DNA of 64,000 nucleotides from Rhizodiscina lignyota (lineage: Eukaryota). Numbering within the stretch: position 1 is the stretch's first letter; each line of letters opens with the position of its first letter. Below the pieces are notes generated by a model, which was not told the DNA's origin, made no database searches, and saw only the letters and a list, made by a program, of their open reading frames with translations. Location: assembly GCA_010015805.1 (NCBI GenBank), contig ML978123.1:2418001-2482000 (forward strand), read 5' to 3'. The position numbers and the translations under genes were made by a program. Shown piece by piece: positions 1,368 to 21,866 of this stretch.

Positions 1368-1736
1368 TTTTCAAAGCTTGTACCAGTTCCAATTTGAGCG
1401 CTTAGACTTCTGATGGACAGAAAACGAGCGGACGCCAAGCAGTCTGGTTGAGAGGCTGTCCTATTCAACTGAACGGCTGTAGTAAAAACAAGTTTTATTC
1501 TTTAGCACGAGCGGGAGCGTCTCTGAGCGCTCGATTAGATATATTCTAGGGCTTATTCATCTAAAACGCGCAGCTTTAGTATATATAATCTATATTAACT
1601 GCTAAGGATATGCATCCCTGTAGTTCGATACATTGCAGCTATAACTTAACTATTTTATTACCCACTTGGTAGAGTCGCCGGCGAAGTCGTATCTCTTAAT
1701 GTAGAATAATGGCCGTACTCCTCGTCTAGGACGATT

Positions 1737-1810
1737 TATAAGAACGGTGTGCTATTCGCATACGTTTAGCTTTAATTGGTCAAAGCCGGGGAGAATTTGC
1801 TCACCGGAGT
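1737..1810 (-). pseudogene. Partial inverted copy of the tRNA-Ile(UAU) gene at 10337-10486
   Basis: Reverse complement of 1766-1810 matches 10337-10381 at 44/45 nt. After an unrelated 11-nt spacer comes TAGCACACCGTTCTTATA (16/18 to 10405-10422). No A box or B box. Confidence 0.85.
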
Positions 1811-1885
1811 ATGATGTCTCTCCTCTTGCCTTCGAGAGGTAATTCACACTGCGCTAGGTAGTGCCAATTTCAGCAGAGTTGCTAG

Positions 1886-2822
1886 ATCTGTATCGATCCG
1901 ATCCTGCAAATATCGTAAGGCTTGTATCCCTGCATATTACTTTGAGGATGACAAAATAGCAGGCCGCCTGGCACTTTGTAACGTTTAGGAGCAAGCAGCC
2001 CTCGCACTTCGATGCAAGTGAGACTATATCTGAAAGCTTAGTCCTATATTCCTTAGAGTGTATTTTGCAATATCGATCTTACTAGAAACTTTGTACAGTT
2101 TATTAAAAATAGAGGCTACTCACAATAGCTACCTAATGTCTTAAAGGAAGGCTGCTACGAGCATCTTCAACCCCCTTAAGTTGACTTTACTTCTCTCGGA
2201 TGACACTAGGTTACTATAATCTTATTACCCTATGCTACATTTCCGGGTCTAAATAACGTACAATTTTGCTACTACATCTGTATTAATCCGATCCTGTAGA
2301 TAAGGCATGTCTCTGCGAGACTGCGTCTTATGGCCGACTACCGGCCCCGTAAGCTGTAAGGTCCAAAAGCAAGCAGCTCTCACACTTCAAGGCAAGCGAG
2401 ACTATCTCCGAAGGCTTAGTTCTACATTATTTAGAGCGTATATATCAAAAGCATCCCGTTGATAGATCTGTATGTCTTGTCAATTAGACTCTGTAGCGGA
2501 CGGGTAATCGATAACGTCTTAAGGGCGAGTAGCACTTGCTTAAATTTCTCTTAAGGATAGGCGGGACTGTATCTAGAAGTTTAATTCCACGCTCTTTAGA
2601 GTGTATATAATTTGATCGCCGGGGAAGTTGTAATGTTTAACGGGAAACAGCTCTTACTCTTCCAGGTAGATAGGACTATCGTTGAAAATTTAATTATACT
2701 TTCTTTAGAGTGTATATAATTTGATCGCCCGGGAAGTTGTAATATTTAACAGAATACAGCTCTTGCTCTTCAAGGCAAATAGGACTATCATTGAAAATTT
2801 AATTATACTTTCTTTAGAGTAT
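1886..2822. repeat. Degenerate tandem repeat family, AT/TpA-rich
   Basis: CTTTAGAGT recurs at 2594, 2703 and 2812 (109-bp period, near-identical units). Related diverged units lie at ~1996-2065 and ~2374-2445, and TCTGTAT..ATCCGATCCTG occurs at ~1887 and ~2277. Confidence 0.8.
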
Positions 2823-2879
2823 TTATGATATATCTGTTCCTCGGCTCATTCAGACTCCTGTCTAGACCTCCGCTTGACC

Positions 2880-5421
2880 TCAATCGTCCTCAGCAGGCGG
2901 CTTATGCATACCAGAGAACTGGTAGACCTTCTCTTCATCCGGGTCCACGCAGAATAACTCCGGGTCCAAGCCTTCCCTAGAAGCGTCCTTCGATTGCATC
3001 CTCGACGTAAGGGCCCATATCATGGTCTCATTGCTCAGTAGTAGAGACTCACTGGTCCATGAGCAAGGACGACCAATATCTTTGCAGCGCGGACAGGTTT
3101 CTGTACCAGGAAGTTGTTTGCACTCAGGCTGAGCGCCGGTCGTCCTTTCATAGACGTAGCAGCTGTCGCACTCCCTTCTGTGTCCACTCGTGTTGCCTTT
3201 TCCTAATTTGTTCAAGCTAGCTCTTCCGAAAGCTCCTCCGATGTTCTCCAAGCCGACCTTTTTCATTTCTTCTATAATCTCATCCTCACTCTTGCGGTGC
3301 GCTTTCCACGGGATAGCCGACTTGCCAAGCTGCTCACTGAACCGATAAGTTTGGGTGAACCAATCGAACTCGGCCCTAATAACCCGTGCCATACCAAATG
3401 GTGGTCTCCATTCGTCACGCTCGGGATCCAACTCTCTGGAGTCCAACAAGTGTCGCTTCAGGTGCCGAATGATGCCAGTAGCGTCCACATACGGTTTGAG
3501 TGAGCCCGGTACATCGGGGTTGTACATCTGCGACACCCAAGTTAACACATTTAACTATATAATTCCGTTGATTAAAGTGCCTACCAATAGAGTTTGAGTG
3601 AACTGATAATATAGTTCCTTCCACTGTCCAGTTTTTAGGTCTTGCCACTCAAACCTTGCTCCGAGTCTAGCGGCATCGGACCAGTCGCTGAATGGTCCGA
3701 TATCTGGGAGCAATGCCAGAGGGTATGGATGCATCTGACCTTCCGGAACGATCTCGAATGTGGGGTATACCGGAGTTCCCTGCGGCGGCAACTCTCCTTC
3801 GTTGGTCTGGAAGTTGACAACGAATATTTTCTCTTTCGGGTCTCTTGGTGAATTTACGCGCAGAGTATAGAGCTGGTAGTGGTCGCAGTGATCTTTTCCA
3901 CCGTCCTCATGGTTTCGAAGTACTTTGCGACACTTGTATGGCACTCCTCGACGGTAGTTCTCGACTTTGCCGATACCAGGGAATTCCGCCTCGGTAAGCA
4001 CCCAGAGCCTCTTCTCGAAGCCAGACTCTTCGAAGATGGGGCTGGCTCTGTTCAACCCATCTGTGACACTCTGCTCTTGGCCGCAGAAGCTCGCTCGAGT
4101 GGTCGCACCTGGCCAACCAGAAATCATTTTTGCCTTGTCGGCGATGGCCTTCAGACGAATAGCACAGTCCGACATGTCCGCGTAAGTTGCCGTCCAAGCA
4201 CCGAGGTTTTGCTTGTGAGTCTCGTTGGTACTAGCGACTGTGCTGGGGCTGAGCTTCGGATTGAATAGCCTCGAGTTGTACGTCTCCATGAGCAGCATAC
4301 ACACTTGCTCCCTGACTTCTCGCTCGGATTTATCGTCGATTGTTTGTCGACAGAGTACAATAGCGAGCCTTGTCCTCGCAGCATGCATAACCTGTTCAAA
4401 CTGTGAGAGGGAATCTAATTGTACAGTGGGTAACGGTGGGATAATACCTTGTAGGGATAGAAATGCCAGTCTTTACGGTTCTCGTCGAAGCAATCATTCT
4501 TGTGTTGTTGCCACTGCAAGCTGAAGTTGTTTGTCGAACCGACATACTGCCGACTGGAACCATCAGGCCAGACTCCAGGAAGCTCGTCTGTCGGTACAAA
4601 GTCCGAATAGTCGCAAAGGTAAATACCATGATTGCCTAAAACCATATGAAGCAAATCAGAACAGGTCCCTATTCAAGCCATGAACCACAGGCCAACTTAC
4701 CCTTCTCGTTCTTCGAATCGATCTTCACTGCGGCTTCAAGGAGCTCTTCACGTGTGAAGTTGGGCTTGTTCAAGACATCCAGCACCCCTGCCTGTCTGAA
4801 GCCCTCGTGCATTTTGTAGACGAATTTTGGGATATTGGAACCGGTTTCGCCCATCTCGGACACCCATTTAGTTCCGACAATGTCCAGTCCTTCACCTCTT
4901 GCCGCGTGTATCGATCGAACGAGAGCGTCAAGTGCCTTGTACACTTGATCTTGGTCCGCAGGTATAGGTATGTCAAACTTCTTGCCTTCTCTCTCTTTTG
5001 CCAAATGCTCGAATTCTATCGAGAACTGTCCCGGAATAACCTTCACGCCCGGCTCGATGTCTTCATGCGAAACTTCAAATTTGTGGACATCGGGTTTGAT
5101 CTCTCCGGGGAGAATGCCTGATTCTGTTGCCGAGTGTTCGGGTGTCCGCTCCACTTGGACAACGCACGTCTTCTCCAGCTCGTTGTTCGTTAGAATTGTC
5201 CCCACATCGCCCTCAAAGATTTGGATTTCTCGCGTTTTTGCAGTTGTAGCAGTGAAACCTCGTTTAGCTCGGAATGTATAGTCTTTCTCGAACCGGGGTA
5301 TGTCCGATGAATGTGACATACTAGGCATAGAGCCATAGTCCGAGGATTCGAGGTTCGGGAAGGAGCCGTAGTCCGATGTATCGAGGTTCGGAAAGGAGTC
5401 GTAGTCTGATGTTTGAGACAT
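2880..5421 (-). CDS. 787-aa four-exon orphan protein with GIY-YIG nuclease-like domain and C-terminal Zn2Cys6-like cluster
   Basis: Exons 5421-4701, 4635-4448, 4391-3585, 3527-2880 are joined in frame by GT-AG introns of 65, 56 and 57 nt. Motifs: GIY…YVGSTNNFSLQWQQH…EREVREQ…YN and C-x2-C-x12-C-x8-C-x2-C-x6-C. Confidence 0.8.
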
Positions 5422-6625
5422 GCCTGTCTTGAGAGAGAGAGAGCATGCACAGGTACGTTGTTGCAAGTGCAAGGAGGAGTAGAGAATCGAGCGGAATTGA
5501 GATGCTTCTGCCTGCTTGCCGCCGTGTTGTGAATGATGTGGCTTCTGATGCAATGCACAAATGTGCGAATACTTTACCGACAGGATTCAAAGAGAGTTGA
5601 AACCGTTTGTGACAGTGGGCGGCAGAATACGTCGTGCGGTGGAGTTGGACGACGGGCAGGCACGACCTTCGGTGGAAGGAGCGACCTCACCATATATGCA
5701 GCACCCCAATACTAAGTATACATGTAAGCTAGCAGGGAATCATTAGCAGGATAATAGAAATGAGTTGCTGAGTACTCGGCAGGTCGCATTTGGAAGATGT
5801 ATTGGTTTCAACGTTGGCATACAATGCAACGTCACCTGGTTTGAGCCAGGCGACCAGGAGGCAGCTTGCGCGCACCAGACTGGATTTTCAAAGAACGCAT
5901 AAGAAGATACTGTCGAGAGATAGGTCTAGCCTAGTCTCTGTTACAAACCCATCATGGTCGCTAGTACAAGTTTCCAGTGCGGTGATTGGGTGTCGTTCGT
6001 CAGTCCTTCCTGTGCCGGTGTCTCCCAGATTCGGAAACTCCAAATTGCGCGAGATGAGTGCAGCTGCTGGAGAAGGGCACGAAATTGGCTTAAGTGCCTG
6101 CTGCTTCGATGCACGCTGACTGGCTTGGGTGCTCGCTAGCTGGCTTCAATGCGTGTGCTCGCTATTTGAGGCTATTTGCTTATCGTACGTTAAAAGTAAG
6201 CTTATAAGAGGTTCAGCAAAACATTGAACATACAACAAATAGCAAACGAGGGGATTGATGAACTGTTTACCATCTCGTAACTTAACTGAACTCAGTCTTA
6301 GCTTCGCCTCGACAACGAGACTACTAGTCCCCGACACCGTGCAACAATGAGAGCTGCTAGAGGTGCTGAGTTATCGCCGGGGTTGGCTTGTAACGTATAG
6401 TCACAAACAGAGCGTTCAGCAAATCAAAGTCTTTGACTAGTTCCGCTGCGCGCTGTAAATAGCAATGATAACAAGACACCATAAGTATGCTGTCATGGTT
6501 CTCACTGCTGAGCGAAGCCGTTAGCCGCATTTATTGGCTGAACGAAACGCTGGAAGGCTCGAGGCTATGATTGCCTGAACCTTAAGAAGCTAGCATGCAA
6601 AAAGGCGCTCGCATGGCTCGAGATG

Positions 6626-7309
6626 TCATGAGTCGTCAGTGCTTTCTTTAGGCTTCGGAGACTCCTTAGTCTCCTCATCTAAAGTCACCGTCACGTCTTC
6701 ATCTATAGGGTCAGAGTAACCGATAGATGACTCGCCCTGGGACATCGCACCACTCCATTCAAGTGATGCTGGAGCTGTGAGCTGAGAAGCAGTCTGAAGA
6801 GTAGGACCGACCGGCAGAGACTCCGTGTCGGAAGCCATATCCACATTGGAAGTCATGCCTACGTCCAATGCGTCCATGGCCTCTAGAAGATCATCCGTGA
6901 TTTCTGTATCACCTTGATCTTGCTCTTGATCTTGCTCTGCGGATGGTGAAGGCCTTGCCTCCAACTGATCGCCTGCAATATTGTCGAGACTCTGTCTCGC
7001 GGAGTCGAGCATGCGCTCTTGATCGGGAAACTGGTTTGCAATCTCGGAACCAAGAGGCCAACGCTGACGGATTTGCTGGTACACTCTTTCCGCCTCTAGA
7101 CGGTAGCTTTCAGCCCCATCCCAGTCGTCGACAGCGCAAGCTAGGATCATATTGACCCTTAGTCTTTCGCTGTAAGGAAGTTCGGGCTCCCAGAGCAGCT
7201 CCATGAGTTGCTCGACACACTCTTGATGACGTTCCGTATCGTAGAGCGCGTAAGCGGCACGTATTCGAAAGATGAAAGCAACCTCGACATTGTTGAAAGG
7301 TCTTAACAT
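6626..7309 (-). CDS. 227-aa hypothetical protein, helical N-terminal half and acidic disordered tail
   Basis: Open frame from ATG 7309 (MLRPFNNVEVAF…). A truncated paralog at 9643-9808 begins at the same ATG, which supports this start. Confidence 0.65.
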   Translation of the reverse strand: MLRPFNNVEVAFIFRIRAAYALYDTERHQECVEQLMELLWEPELPYSERLRVNMILACAVDDWDGAESYRLEAERVYQQIRQRWPLGSEIANQFPDQERMLDSARQSLDNIAGDQLEARPSPSAEQDQEQDQGDTEITDDLLEAMDALDVGMTSNVDMASDTESLPVGPTLQTASQLTAPASLEWSGAMSQGESSIGYSDPIDEDVTVTLDEETKESPKPKESTDDS

Positions 7310-7880
7310 CTTTTTTAAGACCGAAGCGTGAAGTGTTGATTGTATGTCGAGAAGATGAGTTGGATGACGCGAAACGAAGTAGAGGGTTAGTCGATAGCTC
7401 AATCTTACGCTAAGCCAATTTTGGATTGGCACCAAACCCAACTTCCGCATCGACGGCACGCCCACGACGCGGTGACAAAAGTTGAGCACGGCGAATTCAA
7501 CAGCCAGTAAGAGCAAGTTTTATCCTTTAGTATAAAACATGTTTCAGTGCAATTTTTCAACAAGATAATGGATATTGCTCTATTTGTTGCTACCATAATG
7601 CTACTTGGTCACTACTGTCATCTAAATGGGATGTACTATATACGAGGGAAGCTGTGACTTGTGTTGTATTGTGTGCAGATGTGCAGATGTGCAAAGCTGT
7701 AATTTTCAAGGCGGCTCAGTTAAATCAGTATCAATAGTTATGTCTAATTATTAGAAGAAATTGTGTTGAGTGCTCATCTTGGTTTCCCGTAAAGGTACTT
7801 ATCCCCAGCACCACGTAAAGGTGTGAGCACATCGCTGAGGTCTGCTCTATGAGCAGAGATTTTTTCCTGTGGGTTTACTC

Positions 7881-8738
7881 TCAGGAGTCCGGACCCGAGT
7901 CCCAGGGACCCGAGCCGCTACCGCGATGGGGTTCGCGGGGATGTAGCGTATGGAGTACGCTAAGAACTCCGTCGAGCTCCTCTGCGCTCGTGGCATGGCT
8001 TATGATATAGGCCATGTTCGTAGCGAAGTTCCCTGGAGCTTCTGGAACAGAAGCTGGAGCGGCTGCTGGGGCAGCTGCTGGAGAAGGGCACAGAGTTGCC
8101 TTCATGTGCCTGAAGCCGCAGTTGGTGCACACGGAAACGCGGCAACCATCTGGATTCGGCTTATGGAAGCCTTTGCAATCTTGGCAAAAGTTGCTCGGCT
8201 TCCTTCTCTTCTGCTGAGATGGGACACCAGAAGTATCCTCATCGAGAGAGCGCTTTGCGCCCTTCTTTGCATCCTTAGCAGCAATGGCAGCTGCCTGTTG
8301 GGCCTTGTTGGAGTCCTTCTGCTTGCGTTTAGCATCGCAGTTTTGGGACTCACAATAGCCTGGTGGATGAGGGAAGCCATAGGGACACTTGGGCTTACCA
8401 GCGGCAACCCAAGGCTTCCAATCTTCCGGGGCAAAGCGCAGATTCCGCGACTTTGTCGCGTCTTCTGCCGGCCCTGAGACGTCCTCTGGATCATTAGATC
8501 CATGAGTGGAGCCTTGAGAGCTGTTGAGGGGCCTTTTGGGCGCCGGAACAGGCTCTGTTGTTTCCTGAGAGGGGACGAGAGGCCTTTTAGGCGTCGCGTC
8601 ACGCTCTGGTGGTGGTAGAGAACGAGACCTTGTCCCATTCTCTGAAGGATGCTGTGGCACCCTTATAGTGTTTAGTGGAGTGGCTCTTCGCCACTCAACA
8701 AGTTGTGCGCATATATCGTGCGCGTTGTTGATGTCCAT
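7881..8738 (-). CDS. 285-aa hypothetical protein with CCHC-type zinc-knuckle motifs
   Basis: Intact ORF with CQDCKGFHKPNPDGC, CTNCGFRHMKATLC, a degenerate CPYGFPHPPGYC, and a basic KRRK stretch. Confidence 0.7.
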   Translation of the reverse strand: MDINNAHDICAQLVEWRRATPLNTIRVPQHPSENGTRSRSLPPPERDATPKRPLVPSQETTEPVPAPKRPLNSSQGSTHGSNDPEDVSGPAEDATKSRNLRFAPEDWKPWVAAGKPKCPYGFPHPPGYCESQNCDAKRKQKDSNKAQQAAAIAAKDAKKGAKRSLDEDTSGVPSQQKRRKPSNFCQDCKGFHKPNPDGCRVSVCTNCGFRHMKATLCPSPAAAPAAAPASVPEAPGNFATNMAYIISHATSAEELDGVLSVLHTLHPREPHRGSGSGPWDSGPDS

Positions 8739-9642
8739 GTTTTATGGTTCAACTGTGGAGAGGGAAAGGAAGAAAGCAGGAAGTCGAGTGAAAGCGAGAT
8801 ATTTAACTGCAGCCAGCGGCGGCCCGTGCATTTTAGACTTTCCCACAATCAAAGGTCATAACATCATTTCGGGCTCAAGTGACGCCGCAGACTTATCTTC
8901 ATACCTTAATGGGCACACTTTTCACTCTTCCTCTGTATAACCGTGCCAATACGCAAGAATTTGGCTCGATCATTCAACTTAATACGTGAATTGTTACTGT
9001 CCTCTCCAACAGTACTCTAAGCCGTCAGAACGCGGAGCCGTCCACGGGAATTGGTATTCGCCAAATCACTTTATAGAGCATGGTGTGAGTAGAATAGAGT
9101 GAAGCTGGCTAAGGTAGCTCCACGTTAAGATGGGAGCCCCAAATGGTCCCTCCCCCCCCACATATTTGTTAGCACATTCAATCTACCTCTGCAATGCCAC
9201 AAAGTCTTTTTGACGGCATGGGCTCGTGACCAGTGCATGCATTGCAATCCAAACGGCTCGGACAGGATGATAATCTGATCGCATTGCACGAAGGAGTTAG
9301 TTTCTTGTGAGGGAATGAGACCTGCAACGGCGTCTCTTTTCCGCCACCATAAGAAGTAAATCTTCTAAGGCAGGCCTGATAAGCTACTCCCTGACAATCT
9401 CGAATGTAAACTTACCACTATGTAGAAGCTTCTTAAACATGCTGAAGGCGACTGTAATATAGTAGCTCTGTAGACTGTTCAGTCGCAGCAAACTAGCGCC
9501 TTCGTAATAACATCTTAGTGAAGAAATTCTGTCCGCTCCGACCGTCTGCGATCGTAAGACAACGGTATCAGACACATGTGATTTTGACTGAAGAAGTCGT
9601 CCTTGTAGCCCGAATACCAGTTGGTTAGCGAGGCGTGCTTCT

Positions 9643-9808
9643 TCTAGACGATAGCTTTCAGCCTCGTTCCAGTCATCGACGGCGCGGGCTAGGATCATAT
9701 TGGCCCTCAGTCCTTCGCTGTAAGGAAGCTCCTGGATTACCAGAGCGCGTAAGTGGCCTGTATGCGAAACCTGAAAGTAACTTCGACGTTGTTGGAAGGC
9801 CTTAACAT
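9643..9808 (-). pseudogene. Truncated, internally deleted copy of the 5' part of the 6626-7309 gene
   Basis: MLRPSNNVEVTFRFRIQATYAL and MILARAVDDWNEAESYRLE match MLRPFNNVEVAFIFRIRAAYAL and MILACAVDDWDGAESYRLE. The intervening part is deleted or frameshifted. Confidence 0.85.
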
Positions 9809-10336
9809 TTAGGCAGATGTAGATGTGAATTCTGTGTGATCGAGGTGACGTTGAAATCTCGACTCCAGTGCGCCGGGGGGGTTGGGTTGGTGGGGCAGCA
9901 ACACAGTTGGGTCCGAGTCCTATGATTGCCGTATTATTTTATATTTCGCAACGGCGACGAGGAAAAAATTTATTATAAATTTGGAAAATATAACTTTAGT
10001 ATACTTAAATGTCTACTCTTAATTTTTTTTTAAATTATAATATCTTAATGTGGTGAGATATAAGCGATAGTCTCAAGACATATGCAAGTTCCGAAGAAAC
10101 GGCAGAAAACTGACTTTTTTATATTGTTATTACGTGCTCCCTAATAGTTATATTTTAATTATGAAAAGTGCATATTAGAACTGAGTAGCTAAAATATCCT
10201 TCTGACTTATTTTATTTACAAAAATACTACGGTGTTGTTCAATTATCTTCCCTGGGGCAAGGGAGGGTTTATTTAGTGATATTGTCATATCTATATGTAA
10301 TAGCAGCCTTTCCTAGTGGCTTGATTTTCAGGCCTG

Positions 10337-10486
10337 ACTCCGGTGAGCAAATTCTCCCCGGCTTTGACCAATCAAAGCTAATAAAAGGCCAGTTGGCGCA
10401 GAGGTAGCGCGCCGTTCTTATACTAGTCATTTGCACTCGTATGAATAGTCATGCGGATGTCACGGGTTCGAATCCCGTACGGAGTA
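10337..10486 (+). tRNA. tRNA-Ile(UAU) with two introns: putative spliceosomal intron 10343-10392 and canonical tRNA intron 10423-10450
   Basis: Spliced cloverleaf: acceptor ACTCCGT/ACGGAGT, D stem GCGC/GCGC, anticodon stem CCGTT/TGCGG, anticodon TAT at 10419-10421, T arm ACGGG-TTCGAAT-CCCGT, discriminator A at 10486. Confidence 0.88.
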
Positions 10487-10779: not shown

Positions 10780-11330
10780 GTCGTTAGATGGATTCAACTT
10801 GCACGGACTACGAAGCTACCGGGCCAAAGTAGAAAACTCGAGTTGTGAGAGGACAAACTGAAATGGAACTCTCGAAAAATGTTACTATTGCGAAAAGCTT
10901 TCTTTGTTCTTTCTCGTCCTCCACCTTTTGCCCTTCTCCTTCTTCTCCTCCTTCTCCTCCACCTTCTCCTTTTGCTTTTCCTTTCTCAGTTACAAAGGAG
11001 CTAGTTTCCTACGAGCGAACAGTATAGAGCTACTCTATTATAGTTGCCTTCAGCACTTCTAAGGAGCTTCCGTATATCACGGAGTTTATATTCGATGTTA
11101 TATAAGAGTAGCTTATCAAGCCTACCCTAGAAGATTTGCTTCTTCTCGTTATAAAAAAGAGATGCTATTACAGGTCTCACACCCTTATATAAAACGAGGT
11201 CCTTCGTACTATCCCTACCTACTTAGCTATATAGGGGAGTGTCGGCGAAGCGAGCGTCGCCGCGGCAGCAGTAGGAGGAGGGGTTATAGGCGATTATAGG
11301 TAGAAATGGAGCTATGAAATACGTAAACAT
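10780..11330 (-). pseudogene. RIP-like degenerate coding remnant
   Basis: TpA-rich, stop-interrupted sequence with protein-like stretches on the minus strand (TEKGKAKGEGGGEGGEEGEGQKVEDEKEQRKLF; PITPPPTAAAATLASP). Confidence 0.4.
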
Positions 11331-16264: not shown

Positions 16265-16922
16265 ATGGCGCCAAATATGTCACTCTTTTCCGTCAACGCC
16301 GTCCTCATCCTCTCCACCGACGACTCGCGAATCCTCACGAAATACTACTCACCTCCACACCCGCCAGCAGGCACTCCTGCAAACTCCACAAATTACCCAG
16401 GCGCAAATCCATACCCGAGTCTAAAGGATCAAAAAGCTTTTGAGAAGGGGCTGCTTGAGAAGACTGCAAAGCAAACCAGCGATATCATTTTATATGATAA
16501 TCGGGTAGTAGTCTTCAAGATGGAGAGTGACGTGATGCTGTATGTGGTGGGAGGCGTAGATGAGAATGAGATATTACTCTATAGCGTCATTCTGGCGTTG
16601 CGAGACTCATTGAACATTCTCCTCAAGTATGTTTGCAACCTTACGCTCATTTTGGCTCCATCCTAATGACATGCAAAGGAGCTCGGTAGACAAGCGGACG
16701 ATTATTGAAAACTACGACCTTGTTTCGCTCGCGATAGATGAGATTGTCGACGACGGCATTGTCCTCGAGACCGACCCAATCATTGTCGCAAGCAGAGTGA
16801 GCAGGCCCCCTGCGCAAGACATGGCCAGCATGAAGGGGATTGATCTGTCGGAACAAGGGTTATTGAACGCGTGGGAAATGGTAAAGGTGAAGGCAAAGGA
16901 GAGGATAAGAGACGGGTTATAA
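16265..16922 (+). CDS. RET3: Coatomer subunit zeta (intron 16627-16678)
   Basis: Longin-like sequence FEKGLLEKT…ENEILLY…VDKRTIIENYDLVSLAIDEIVDDGIVLETDP. Confidence 0.93.
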
Positions 16923-17603
16923 GTGAACGACAAATTTACGAGTTAGGAGCTGACGACTTGTGCTGGTCTATACCACGATCAACAAGATCGCACCGCCTTG
17001 GACCATAGCGAGGTTTGGCGTTTGGGCGCAGCTATGATAGATAAATTGAGGCGGGCTTTGCAAGGCCTCGGATTTGGGGGACGTGGATTCCATTGCGACG
17101 ATGCCAGTGGCTGCTGAAATAGTGACAGTATTGCAGACAACAAACTAGTCGCAATGATAGACGTCCCCCCACTTTCTGACATTTTGTTCGTGAGTGTTAT
17201 GTTCAACTTAGCGTGTGCGCTATGGCAGTGAGAGTAGTTATAATGTCCAGCAGGACTTGCTAACTTGACACTGGTCTCTTTGTGATCTTTATGTGGAAGA
17301 AAATATTAAGGAAGCTAATTTTACAATTTCGTAGAGCTCGAGCAAGGTCTATGTCATATGAAGCCTTTCGGAACTATCAATAGACTCAGAGCTGGAGTAA
17401 GTTTGACCAGAAGCCGGGCGTGATCCCTTAAATCGATTTGTGTGCGTCACCGTGGTTTCGACAAATCGACATTATAGCCATTGTGCACGTGTCAATCGCT
17501 CCGCACCTCTTAGGTATTTTGCATGACGCAACTCTATGAAACATCCACACTCTACAATCTAGGTTATACCCTTCACCATCACACTCTCCACCGACGTGCC
17601 ACC

Positions 17604-20600
17604 ATGAAGCAGCGGTTCTCCTCTTTGGACGTCAAAGTAATCGCTCACGAGCTGAATGCCACCCTACCTTCACTCCGTGTCACGAATATCTACGACCTTT
17701 CCACGCGCATCTTCCTAATAAAGTTCCACGCACCAAACCAGCGCGAACAGCTGGTAATAGACTCTGGCTTCCGATGCCACCTCTCCTCCTTTGCACGCAC
17801 AACTGCCGCTGCCCCGTCGCCGTTCGTTCAACGGCTTCGAAAGTTCCTCAAGACCAGGCGAGTAACGAAAGTCGCGCAAATCGGAACCGATCGCATAATT
17901 GAGCTACAGTTTTCAGATGGGCTCTACAGGCTATTCTTAGAGTTCTATGCGGCGGGCAACATCGTTCTCACAGATGCGGAGTTGAACGTTATTGCGTTGC
18001 AACGGATTGTTAGCGAGGGCGATGAGCAGGTCAAGCTGGGCGCAAAATACAATCTTGAAGGGAGGCAGAACTATGCCGGTGTGCCGGAGCTGACGAGGGA
18101 AAGTGTTGTGGAGCGGCTAAAAGCAGCTGTCGCAAAACAGAGTGAGGCGACGCAGGATGACGGGGCGAAGAAAGCAAAGTTCAAGAAGAAGGGCAAGGAT
18201 GCACTGAGGAAGACGCTAGCAGTGAGCTTGACAGAATACCCGCCAATGCTGCTAGATCATGGGTTGAGTGTTGTTGGGTTCGATAAAGAGACTAGCCCAG
18301 AAGAAGTGATCGAGAAGGACTCTGTAATGGAAAAGCTCATGGAAGCCTTACAGGAGGCCAGGAGAATCATCGATGAGGTCATGGCAGCATCAATAGTAAA
18401 GGGCTACATTCTAGCAAAGCCACTCAAGAAATCCGAGCAGGAGAAAGAGGCCAACAAAGAAAGTGGGGAAGGTTCAGACACGACATCGAACCTCATTTAC
18501 GACGACTTCCATCCGTTCAAGCCCCACCAATTCGAGAGTGATCCGTCAATACGATTCCTTGAATTTGAAGGCTTCAACAAGACAGTTGACGAATTCTTCT
18601 CATCTATAGAAGGGCAGAGGCTCGAATCACGACTTCACGAGCGCGAGGAGGCAGCAAAGCGGAAGCTAGATCAGGCACGAGCGGATCATGAGAAACGTAT
18701 CGACAGCTTGCAGCAGGTCCAGGTATCGAACGTACGGAAAGCCCAAGCAATCGAGGCAAACCTGGAGCGCGTTGAAGAGGCCAAAGCTGCGGTAAATGGG
18801 TTGATTGGGCAAGGAATGGACTGGGCCGATATCGCCAGGCTGATTGAGACAGAGCAGAAGAGAGGAAATCAAGTGGCGCAGATGATCAAGCTACCGCTCA
18901 AGCTGTACGAGAACACAGTGACACTGCTTCTAGCTGAGCCTAGCTTTGACGAAGACCCTGATGACGAAGGATATGAGACAGAGACCCATTCTTCCGACAG
19001 CGAGGATGAATTACCGACTACCACCAAGGGGAAAGAGCTCGCAGCAAAGGAGGAAGACAAGCGGCTTACTGTCGACATCGACCTTGGACTGTCCTCTTGG
19101 ACGAATGCGAGCCAGTACTACGATCAAAAGAAGAGCGCTGTTAAAAAGGAAGAGAAGACCGCCCAAGCCTCTGGCAAGGCTCTAAAGAGTGCACAGCTGA
19201 AGATTCAGGCCGATCTGAAGAAAGGCCTGAAGCAGGAGAAGGATGTGTTGAGGCCGGTAAGAAAGCAGTTTTGGTTTGAAAAGTTCCTTTATTTCATATC
19301 TTCAGAAGGCTACCTTGTCCTTGGTGGCAAAGACGCGCCTCAAAATGAACTGCTTTACCGAAAGCATCTTCGCAAAGGAGACGTCTACGTTCATGCGGAC
19401 TTGCATGGCGCTTCATCTGTCATCATAAAAAATAACCCTGCGACCCCGGATGCGCCGATTCCGCCGTCTACACTTTCACAAGCTGGTAACCTATCAGTGT
19501 GTACGTCCTCGGCCTGGGACTCAAAAGCCGTCATGTCGGCTTGGTGGGTAAACGCAGATCAGGTCTCGAAAACAGCGCCTACAGGGGAGTATCTCACCAC
19601 TGGCGGTTTCATGATCAGAGGTCAGAAAAACTTCTTGCCTCCTGCACAGCTGTTGCTTGGATTTGCCGTCATGTTTCAGATCAGCGAGGACAGCAAGAGC
19701 AGACATATCAAGCACCGCATTCTAGATTCCGATCCCACTGTGCTGGGTGCTGCAGAGGCTAAACCACCTGAGCCGGCGGAAGAGGCCGCTCCAGAGCCTG
19801 AGCCTGAACCTGAGCCAGCGGCCCCCACCCAAGATTCTGACGAGGAGGAGGACTTCCCAGATGTCAAAGTAACCGGACTTTCAATTGATTCCGATGAAGA
19901 TGAGGATTTCCCTGACGCGAAACTGGATGACAGCAATCCGGAAGCTGAAGACGAGGAAGAAGGAACCGCCACATACAACCCGCTTCAGGAAGGTACCTCA
20001 GAGGCCAAGGAGAATGAGGATGATGGTGACGACAATGAGAGCTATGCAGAGAATGAGGACGAAGTTGCAGATCCCACAAAGGGAGCTGAGAAAGCCCAAA
20101 GTTCCGAGAACGCGGCTGACGAAAAGTCACAAAAGGGCACCCGTCACCTTTCAGCGAAAGAGCGGCGTCTACTCCGCAAAGGCATCACCTCGTCCCAGCA
20201 ACCTTCTACAGCGGCCAGTGAATCCGACCCGGAACCACGGGACACCCGGCCATCAGCTCCGTCTCCTGCACCCACCTCTAGTAGCGCTTCTAAAGGCAAA
20301 CCACAGCCGGTACCCCGTGGTAAGCGCGGCAAGCAGAAGAAGCTGGCAGCCAAGTACGCCGACCAAGACGAGGAAGACCGCGAACTTGCCATGCGCATTC
20401 TTGGCTCAAAGACTGGGCAAGAGCAAGCAAAGGCCGAGGCCGAGGCCAGGAAGAAAAAGAAGGAGGAGGAAGAAGCGCAGAAGCAACGACGCAGAGAACA
20501 GCACCAGCGCGTCCAGGCCGCCGCAGAAGAGAAGCGCAGGAGGGCTGTAGACGGCGCCGCCCGTGCAGAAGGCGCACCAGAAGACGACGCAGACGAGACG

Positions 20601-21038
20601 CTTGAGAACGACGAGGAAGCCGCGCGTCTTGAAGCCGTCGGCCTTGATGCCTTCGTCGGACGGCCGCTGCCGGGCGACGAGCTGCTCGCTGCAATACCCA
20701 TGTGCGCGCCGTGGCAGGCGCTCGCGAACTACAAATACAAGGTCAAGATGCAGCCCGGCATGCAGAAGCGCGGGAAGGCGCTGAGGGAGATTCTGGGCCG
20801 GTGGGACGCAGATGCAAAGGTGGGCAGGAACGTGGACGAGAAGAGCGAGGATGGCGAGAAGATGTGGCCAAGGGAGATTGAGCTTGTGAGGGCGTGGAAG
20901 GAAGCCGAGGTCGTGGGCGTGCTGCCGGTTGGAAAGCTCAGGGTAATGCTGAGTGGAGGGGGTGGTGGGAAGGACGGTGGTAAAGGCAAAGGGAAGGCCC
21001 AGGCGAAGGGGAAGGGTGGGAAAGGTGGGAAGAAATAG
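17604..21038 (+). CDS. RQC2: Ribosome quality control complex subunit Rqc2/NEMF
   Basis: MKQRFSSLDV N-terminus, FWFEKF…GGKDAPQNE…YVHADLHGA (NFACT-R) and C-terminal CAPW…YKYKVKMQPG. Confidence 0.95.
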   Translation: MKQRFSSLDVKVIAHELNATLPSLRVTNIYDLSTRIFLIKFHAPNQREQLVIDSGFRCHLSSFARTTAAAPSPFVQRLRKFLKTRRVTKVAQIGTDRIIELQFSDGLYRLFLEFYAAGNIVLTDAELNVIALQRIVSEGDEQVKLGAKYNLEGRQNYAGVPELTRESVVERLKAAVAKQSEATQDDGAKKAKFKKKGKDALRKTLAVSLTEYPPMLLDHGLSVVGFDKETSPEEVIEKDSVMEKLMEALQEARRIIDEVMAASIVKGYILAKPLKKSEQEKEANKESGEGSDTTSNLIYDDFHPFKPHQFESDPSIRFLEFEGFNKTVDEFFSSIEGQRLESRLHEREEAAKRKLDQARADHEKRIDSLQQVQVSNVRKAQAIEANLERVEEAKAAVNGLIGQGMDWADIARLIETEQKRGNQVAQMIKLPLKLYENTVTLLLAEPSFDEDPDDEGYETETHSSDSEDELPTTTKGKELAAKEEDKRLTVDIDLGLSSWTNASQYYDQKKSAVKKEEKTAQASGKALKSAQLKIQADLKKGLKQEKDVLRPVRKQFWFEKFLYFISSEGYLVLGGKDAPQNELLYRKHLRKGDVYVHADLHGASSVIIKNNPATPDAPIPPSTLSQAGNLSVCTSSAWDSKAVMSAWWVNADQVSKTAPTGEYLTTGGFMIRGQKNFLPPAQLLLGFAVMFQISEDSKSRHIKHRILDSDPTVLGAAEAKPPEPAEEAAPEPEPEPEPAAPTQDSDEEEDFPDVKVTGLSIDSDEDEDFPDAKLDDSNPEAEDEEEGTATYNPLQEGTSEAKENEDDGDDNESYAENEDEVADPTKGAEKAQSSENAADEKSQKGTRHLSAKERRLLRKGITSSQQPSTAASESDPEPRDTRPSAPSPAPTSSSASKGKPQPVPRGKRGKQKKLAAKYADQDEEDRELAMRILGSKTGQEQAKAEAEARKKKKEEEEAQKQRRREQHQRVQAAAEEKRRRAVDGAARAEGAPEDDADETLENDEEAARLEAVGLDAFVGRPLPGDELLAAIPMCAPWQALANYKYKVKMQPGMQKRGKALREILGRWDADAKVGRNVDEKSEDGEKMWPREIELVRAWKEAEVVGVLPVGKLRVMLSGGGGGKDGGKGKGKAQAKGKGGKGGKK

Positions 21039-21866
21039 ATATGGCTTGCTCAGGGCGCGGTGGCCAGTGTTTCAGGAGCCCAAGAGAATTGTAAGCTGTA
21101 TCTTACATGCACTCTTAGACCGCACTGCTCAAATGGCAAATTTCCAAACCTTCCAACTACACAACTCTTGTCCTCGCTGTTCCTCATCCTGCGTCCTCAC
21201 TGATCAGCTCAAGACGCATAATTGTATCTTTTTGACGCCGGCTGTCTCTGCCACGACCAACAGCGCAGGGTGGAGCTCGCGGAAATGGTCTCTGAATGTG
21301 AAAATGGCGCTCAGGTTCGCCAATTGGTTGTCTAGCTGTCCAAGTCGGCTCATTTTCCAATTACCAGACAACTCTTAAATCAAGCAAATCCCATGATTCA
21401 ATTCGTCGGAACCGCGCGAGAAGAACGATGTTGAACAATCTGGTATTGAGAACGTCTCAAATCGAGAGATGGCTCAATTGAGAACAAGATGCTACCGCTG
21501 GCTGTGCTGCGCTATAGAGTACAGTTTGGATATCGAGCTTTCGCAAAAATGACATGATCCGATGGTAATGGTATCGCTGCTGGGCCTTCTTCAATTCTGC
21601 CCAGGTGATTGACGACCGAAAATAGAAAAGCGAGAGAGGAAGAGAAAGAAAAAGATTGCAACGCTGCCCCATGGTCCGGTGCCAATCCCCGGCTGTTCCC
21701 TATTCCAGCTTTCGCTGATTCCAAAAGAAAATTCCAAAAATGAGCTTTCGCTGGCATCTTGCCGAGTTATACGCCAAACAAAGGGACCATTTCCACCGAG
21801 GAATCTCACCCGAAACCATAGCAAAAGAGCGTGGTCCCAATAACTAGGAAAAGCTGCCTGCAACTA

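Follow-up and report, generated by a model that had tools for sequence, protein, structure and literature searches.

During break repair in yeast, short tracts copied from other loci can be pasted into the break while the donor remains in place; in the available text of PMC11724301 these copy-paste insertions originate from fragile sites and R-loops, carry microhomology and in some cases consist of two fragments, which mostly derive from one locus in inverted orientation. An RNA-based counterpart is provided by the tailless retropseudogenes of therian mammals, which, in the portions of PMC5322556 drawn on here, contain the 5' part of a tRNA, may be unprocessed, have no A tail, are cut in a loop, insert at targets complementary to their last 2-18 nt and are flanked by target-site duplications of 8-35 nt. 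A third kind of chimera, described in excerpts of PMC2104539, comprises the Magnaporthe LINE retrogenes MINE and WEIRD-MgSINE-MGL, in which a full-length 5' part is joined to a LINE or SINE end at the 3' side, the whole being enclosed by flanking direct repeats.

The locus analysed here, a small inverted piece of a tRNA gene within a window of 64,000 nt (the whole stretch of Rhizodiscina lignyota DNA under study), has likenesses to each of these systems. Short tracts, retained donors, microhomology (here at the junction between the two patches) and a two-fragment composition are common to it and to the yeast insertions; however, as far as the available text of PMC11724301 goes, the latter followed an induced break and their two-fragment donors are mostly one inverted locus, whereas here the event is natural and old, two loci contributed and one end falls exactly at tRNA position +1. 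With the tailless retropseudogenes, as presented in those portions of PMC5322556, it has in common the 5' part of a tRNA that may be unprocessed, the missing A tail, the cut in a loop and the complementarity between its end and the target; unlike them it is fungal (the word 'fungi' occurs 0 times in the main text of that article), has a replaced internal tract, lies 8.5 kb from its parent and lacks a target-site duplication, so that it fails membership of the class yet may have formed likewise. Finally, like the MINE-type chimeras of PMC2104539, as excerpted, it occurs in a filamentous fungus with LINEs and fuses a copy of a non-coding RNA directly to a repeat, but its 5' part is half a tRNA, its 3' part is intergenic DNA plus a MITE, and direct repeats are absent, so that membership fails here as well. 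No report of templated insertions in filamentous fungi was found in the literature searched, nor, in a search covering few subscription journals, any report of fungal tRNA retrocopies of such a shape.

Anatomy and copy number of the fragment

The fragment consists of two blocks of tRNA gene sequence separated by a linker:

1766..1810, minus strand: block 1, copy of tRNA-Ile(UAU) +1..+6 plus the first 39 nt of a 50-nt GT-AG insert, 44/45 identical to 10337-10381
1755..1765, minus strand: linker of 11 nt, replacing 23 nt of the gene (10382-10404)
1737..1754, minus strand: block 2, copy of tRNA positions 20-37, from the 3' strand of the D arm to the anticodon loop, 16/18 identical to 10405-10422

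This confirms the description in the earlier note, made from the letters alone, of a promoter-less, inverted fragment of the same tRNA gene about 8.5 kb away, in which a 44/45 match on the minus strand to the plus-strand gene is followed by 11 unrelated nucleotides in place of the 3' splice site and A box and then by a second tRNA block. The homology runs, as that note had also proposed, from mature +1 to nucleotide 37, and its ends are exact, the first nucleotide being +1 itself and the last A37. A repeat finder run on the window independently reports 1766-1810 and 10337-10381 as a 45-nt inverted pair with 98% complementarity. The last nucleotide of block 1 is the branch-point A of CTAAT (10381), and the 23 gene nucleotides missing from the fragment comprise the 3' splice site, positions +7..+19 and the A box. 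All three differences from the gene are transitions, namely one C>T in a CpA in block 1 and two G>A in CpG in block 2. Block 2 is not a chance match, since the window contains on either strand no other 18-mer within 4 mismatches of 10405-10422.

Used as a query against the 33.4-Mb genome, the tRNA gene matches at least two places, both inside the window; the copy count suggested in the earlier note thus argues against the terminus of a multicopy transposon. The fragment lacks both internal promoter boxes (A and B), the 3' half, the terminator, an upstream TATA and the 3' splice site, ARAGORN returns 0 tRNAs in the window, and alignment of the tRNA 3' half to the 11.7 kb beyond the fragment scores 11, within the 10-13 obtained from 30 shuffles. 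As judged from these comparisons, the fragment copies part of the tRNA-Ile(UAU) gene without its promoter; because it has neither A box, B box, 3' half, promoter nor 3' splice site, it is presumably dead, would make no tRNA and likely has no function. As for the linker, none of its 10- or 11-mers has a match in 93 kb of nearby DNA. An alignment of the linker to the canonical tRNA intron, with 11 matches and a 2-nt gap, was not accepted (p 0.067 with random and 0.080 with shuffled linkers).

The parent gene and its introns

Two introns interrupt the gene from which the fragment was copied:

10337..10486, plus strand: parent (donor) gene, tRNA-Ile(UAU), with an Rfam tRNA match of 32.6 bits at 10387-10486, and with a 7/7 acceptor stem and a 72-nt cloverleaf without both introns
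10343..10392, plus strand: 50-nt insert in the acceptor stem, a candidate spliceosomal-type intron with GTGAGC donor, CTAAT branch site and CAG acceptor
10423..10450, plus strand: canonical tRNA intron after position 37, its 3' edge placed from the fold; absent from the fragment

As it stands, the Rfam match is weak and its acceptor stem broken. Removal of 10343-10392 in silico renders all seven acceptor-stem pairs Watson-Crick, and the cloverleaf is obtained when the canonical intron is taken out as well. The label Met that ARAGORN attaches to the parent gene reflects a misplaced canonical intron, the anticodon loop reading UAU. The insert is not a repeat, according to a genome search, and comparable GT-AG inserts of 51-53 nt occupy the 5' part of four further genes among 28 genome tRNA matches (a set of at least 28, with 63 of 935 candidates scored):

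G000:C1:1273950-1274330: tRNA-Trp(CCA), GT-AG insert in the 5' acceptor strand
G000:C8:734950-735260: tRNA-Ala(UGC), GT-AG insert in the 5' acceptor strand
G000:C6:860130-860420: tRNA-Arg(CCU), GT-AG insert in the 5' acceptor strand
G000:C12:593500-593800: tRNA-Asp(GUC), GT-AG insert after position 13

The 50-nt insert would therefore not be a transposon footprint, being one of a class of GT-AG inserts in tRNA genes; it behaves as a spliceosomal-type intron whose splicing is predicted from its signals. The splice consensus applied to it is the standard one. No report of a spliceosomal intron in a tRNA gene was found in a literature search that covered few subscription journals. mRNA-type introns have reportedly been described in fungal U6 snRNA genes (PMC5855946), where, as in the parent gene, spliceosomal signals lie inside a Pol III gene; here, by contrast, the host is a tRNA acceptor stem and splicing is a prediction.

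Orthologues were collected from metagenomes with a D arm plus anticodon pattern, which yielded 36 loci, or 26 distinct ones after 10 near-duplicates had been dropped. All 26 continue into the 3' half, 20 start with A, and in 21 the heptamer found where it is expected forms 7/7 pairs with another further downstream, G-U pairs being accepted and the best of many positions taken. Together with the 7/7 acceptor stem of the gene itself, this makes +1 at 10337 secure without the fragment; the start of the fragment at ACTCCG, put forward earlier as support for that position, is indeed exact, but the stem and the orthologues fix +1 better. A GT-branch-AG expression matches the 3' half of 14 of the 26 distinct tRNA-Ile(UAU) orthologues, at sites that vary between the variable loop, the T arm and the 3' acceptor strand; an insert in the 5' acceptor strand occurs in 0/26, and a metagenome scan for a gene or fragment with an intron at the same site gave 0 matches.

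A D-arm/anticodon pattern, which would miss a copy whose D-arm/anticodon stretch is split by an intron, hits the genome at 8 places against 19 in a control, and reveals no second intact tRNA-Ile(UAU) gene: two of the places are those in the window, and the other six yielded no Ile(UAU) gene. A scan with a B-box pattern was too noisy (175 places, 136 in the control). Elsewhere in the genome, two atypical tRNA-like units with CAT and GAT anticodons lie 5 nt apart at G000:C12:600025-600173, and a similar odd unit lies at C7:652300-652370; these are possibly SINE-like or decayed.

A second copied segment adjoins the fragment

Directly after nucleotide 37 the sequence passes into a further copied segment, with which the last 5 nt of block 2, TTATA, are held in common:

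1456..1741, minus strand: second patch, 286 bp, composed of ~70 bp of intergenic DNA and a 3'-cut copy of a ~234-bp MITE; matches G000:C3:2517644-2517935
1464..1669, minus strand: MITE part of the second patch; intact copies have terminal inverted repeats and 5-bp target duplications

The matching C3 place lies 98 kb away on the same contig and is 80% identical over 294 columns, end to end, with the same 70-bp flank on one side and the same cut MITE end on the other. Over the 71 nt outside the MITE the identity to G000:C3:2517865-2517935 rises to 92%, these 70 bp being present at only the two places, and no piece of tRNA is found at C3:2517865-2517935. Homology between the two places begins at TTATA, upstream of which they are unrelated. 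The microhomology at the junction between tRNA piece and second patch amounts to 5 nt when exact and to 7 nt with one transition; the chance of 5 or more is about 1e-3.

The stop of the tRNA homology at nucleotide 37 is thus accounted for by a TTATA microhomology junction with a second copied segment, and loses the value as independent evidence of the intron boundary that had been given to it. Likewise, what the earlier note had read as a faint echo of the tRNA 3' end at ~1716-1736 is the first 20 nt of the second patch, as indicated by the 92% match over 71 nt to the tRNA-free place at C3.

The distant copy occupies intergenic DNA before a DEAD_2 helicase gene, and no other match to the tested repeats occurs in 19 kb. 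Since intergenic DNA plus MITE stands there in an otherwise repeat-free 19 kb, we take this copy to be the donor of the second patch, probably the original and unlikely to have served as an RNA template. For the right flank at 860-1462, a donor search gave self matches only.

The query 1400-2100 retrieves at least 40 matches to the repeat at 1464-1669 (40 of 40 scored, of 79 candidates). Among 29 copies fetched, 18 have both ends, and 12 of these 18 show a 5-bp duplication (4-5 of 5 matching); the repeat is, by these termini, a MITE. A solo LTR, another candidate for this neighbour of ~205 bp, was rejected in view of the terminal inverted repeats and the 5-bp MITE duplications. Two MITE-like families with related inverted-repeat ends are present, at 1464-1669 and at about 1940-2830, the first numbering dozens of copies, with target duplications of 5 bp. 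In these duplications and in its CA...TG ends, this first family presumably resembles Transib-type elements.

Flanks and neighbourhood

On the opposite side, the fragment is bordered by single-copy DNA and then by repeats:

1811..1881, minus strand: left flank of the fragment, single-copy, unlike the leader of the gene, no TATA
1882..2117, no strand assigned: one unit of a ~390-bp tandem duplication, containing the end of the second repeat family and its flank; partner at about 2272-2492

At E<=10 the stretch 1806-1945 has one genome match, itself, and beyond 1811-1881 the tandem duplication is followed by more remnants of the second repeat family. When a target-site duplication was sought, nothing better than a 6-nt ungapped match emerged, GAGGAG in either flank, which is at chance level (0.38), and there is no poly(A) tail. 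The TpA/ApT ratio is 1.34 in the neighbouring repeat DNA and 0.60 in a gene-rich stretch, a dinucleotide skew that we take to be RIP.

Several further duplications lie in the vicinity. A ~220-bp repeat in two inverted copies (75%), 9288-9507 and 10990-11207, flanks the tRNA gene, and between fragment and gene there are duplicated pieces of predicted reading frames (7095-7309 and 9643-9808; 6060-6100 and 8071-8112). The interval 6060-9808 forms a rearranged island beside conserved-looking genes from 11517 on.

Origin of the fragment

The likelihoods given below in words are judgements, not computed values. The copy number, the two donors, the common junction and the missing parts are observed; a DNA template, the direction of copying and a single event for both patches are inferred. 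On this reading the fragment would be filler DNA from a DNA-level templated insertion, an ordinary repair scar, a reading to which we give roughly an even chance. A break or stalled fork in this repeat-rich, rearranged stretch would have started repair synthesis on two templates within the one contig, with a first short tract, inverted, taken from the tRNA-Ile gene ~8.5 kb away and a second from the intergenic MITE remnant 98 kb away, with a template switch between them at the common TTATA. The loss of 23 nt and the 11-nt filler may represent a further slip of the same event or a later repair scar, and the copy would subsequently have gained its three C>T/G>A changes, as its RIP-marked neighbours did.

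Both donor sequences are kept at their own loci, in the copy-paste manner, and both are close: in 33.4 Mb, the probability of such proximity by chance is about 5e-4 for 8.6 kb and about 6e-3 for 98 kb. The divergence from the donors, 3/63 for the tRNA part and 6/71 for the non-MITE portion of the second patch, allows a single age for both (Fisher p 0.5), and local duplications elsewhere in the neighbourhood fit copying at the DNA level. In its favour also count the microhomology between the patches, the lack of a target-site duplication and of a tail, and the 0/2 stray copies of other intron-bearing tRNA genes reported below. Against DNA copying stands the coincidence of three breakpoints out of four with sites of RNA processing (+1, the branch A and 37), for which random breakpoints give p of about 1e-4 to 2.5e-4 (six landmarks per edge, 150-200 nt), values to be read with the landmarks having been picked after the data were seen and the finding itself having been selected for neat ends. 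A start at exactly +1 is not predicted by this mechanism either; at the 5' junction neither a donor nor microhomology is apparent, and the second patch differs from its donor at 55 of 293 aligned positions (15 transversions), its MITE part being more diverged than the tRNA part. The lines of evidence for DNA and for RNA are similar in size and opposite in direction. A DNA origin is favoured over an RNA origin because the second patch needs a DNA event anyway and has a common junction with the tRNA piece.

Among the three origins that had been offered in the earlier note, a reverse-transcribed processing intermediate holds up as a possibility, second to the local DNA patch, which was not on that list; the decayed paralog is weak and the mobile-element fragment lacks support. 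A copy derived from RNA, in the manner of a tailless retropseudogene, is a possible but clearly less probable origin than a repair patch. Its route can tentatively be drawn as follows: a genomic 3' end, paired with UUAUA of the anticodon loop, would have primed reverse transcription of a pre-tRNA that had been cut at +1 and kept the acceptor-stem intron, and the enzyme, in an equally tentative step, would have jumped out of the D loop onto the branch point before running to the 5' end of the RNA. Such a route accounts for the exact +1 start without leader, the end in a loop and the 5-nt microhomology to the target, an anatomy that matches features given for tailless retropseudogenes, processed or unprocessed, in those portions of PMC5322556, and it also accommodates the stop of block 1 on the branch A; the complementarity of TTATA to the target is equally expected from a DNA template switch. 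Template jumps of LINEs have been described in a fungus (PMC2104539, excerpts), and the present genome contains a broken LINE with endonuclease and reverse-transcriptase pieces. This element, a near full-length non-LTR retrotransposon at about 16700-21400 of G000:C26, with stops, frameshifts and little RIP signal, is called a LINE by virtue of its endonuclease and reverse-transcriptase matches and would need to have been active when the fragment was inserted; it is followed by very AT-rich DNA with CCCTAA-like motifs.

The RNA route is opposed by the missing target-site duplication and by the closeness of the two copies, since for a diffusible RNA the probability of inserting within 8.6 kb of the parent gene is about 5e-4. 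In addition, the right flank's second copy does not represent a pre-insertion site of the left flank, so that a target deletion must be added; stray copies were found for 0/2 of the other intron-bearing tRNA genes searched, Ala(UGC) and Trp; and LINE endonuclease matches in the genome numbered just 1, a lower bound. In its full form, as a cDNA fossil of a pre-tRNA that had been cut at +1, kept its spliceosomal-type intron and was copied by a reverse transcriptase that skipped to the branch A, the proposal is doubtful, somewhat more so than an RNA origin as such.

Unlikely, next, is the decay of a second tRNA-Ile(UAU) gene, which gene conversion would have kept similar to the parent and which the arrival of the second patch would later have cut at TTATA. 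In gene families the common sequence begins at +1 and flanks are unrelated, and a nearby paralog would explain both the proximity and the +1 start. However, a TATA is present upstream of 20/28 tRNA loci and absent upstream of the fragment, where an A+T share of 0.51 lies close to the lowest values of those loci, and no 3' half is found nearby. The tRNA set, moreover, looks single-copy, anticodons being unrepeated among the 28 matches listed except for two CAT, and strong homogenisation is not seen, the two tRNA-Ala genes being only 83% alike.

Less likely still, the fragment could be a scar left when 1811-10336 was inverted through staggered cuts in the tRNA gene. Staggered-cut inversion leaves inverted duplicates, here one at the far breakpoint, and the geometry fits, the two inverted copies having both 5' ends facing the segment between them; yet such an event predicts the native leader on the fragment and a foreign one on the gene, whereas the TATA-bearing leader is on the intact gene, and it leaves the second patch unexplained.

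Very improbable is a target-homology piece or terminus of a mobile element aiming at tRNA genes, with the 50-nt insert as its footprint: although MITE remnants lie on both sides within 70-130 bp, the 45-mer is found twice and carried by no multicopy family, the tRNA piece appears among the aligned loci only in the window's own copy and the parent gene, tRNAs were detected in 0/29 (ARAGORN) and 0/20 (Rfam) MITE loci, and the insert has splice signals and restores the stem exactly on removal.

One public run contains the locus, and 0 RNA data sets are listed with it. The contigs of that run cover all four flanks, with no differences listed, and break at the 36-nt identical core, where depth is 325 and on the flanking contigs 152-160 (read-derived contigs of that one run, in which depth is no copy number and flank is not phased with tail); depth and contig breaks are the pattern of a true two-copy repeat. 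An assembly artefact, which the earlier note had named as a possible refutation, is hardly credible: that single run may be the source of the assembly, but both copies are present in its contigs, which span the four flanks without difference, the core has about twice the depth, and the two copies differ by 3 substitutions and the replaced tract.

Discussion

If the fragment is a repair scar, the reading that we prefer, it matters little, as yet another small templated patch in rearranged DNA next to a tRNA gene. It is of indirect use in showing that the 50-nt insert is no transposon footprint and predates the copying. Were RNA its template, the fragment would preserve the order in which a tRNA with a spliceosomal-type intron is processed; as a cDNA fossil in the full sense, it would be the only molecular trace so far of transcription through the acceptor-stem intron and of 5' maturation before splicing. 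To the reading of that insert as an intron the fragment adds little, and greater importance attaches to the intron-bearing tRNA genes as such.
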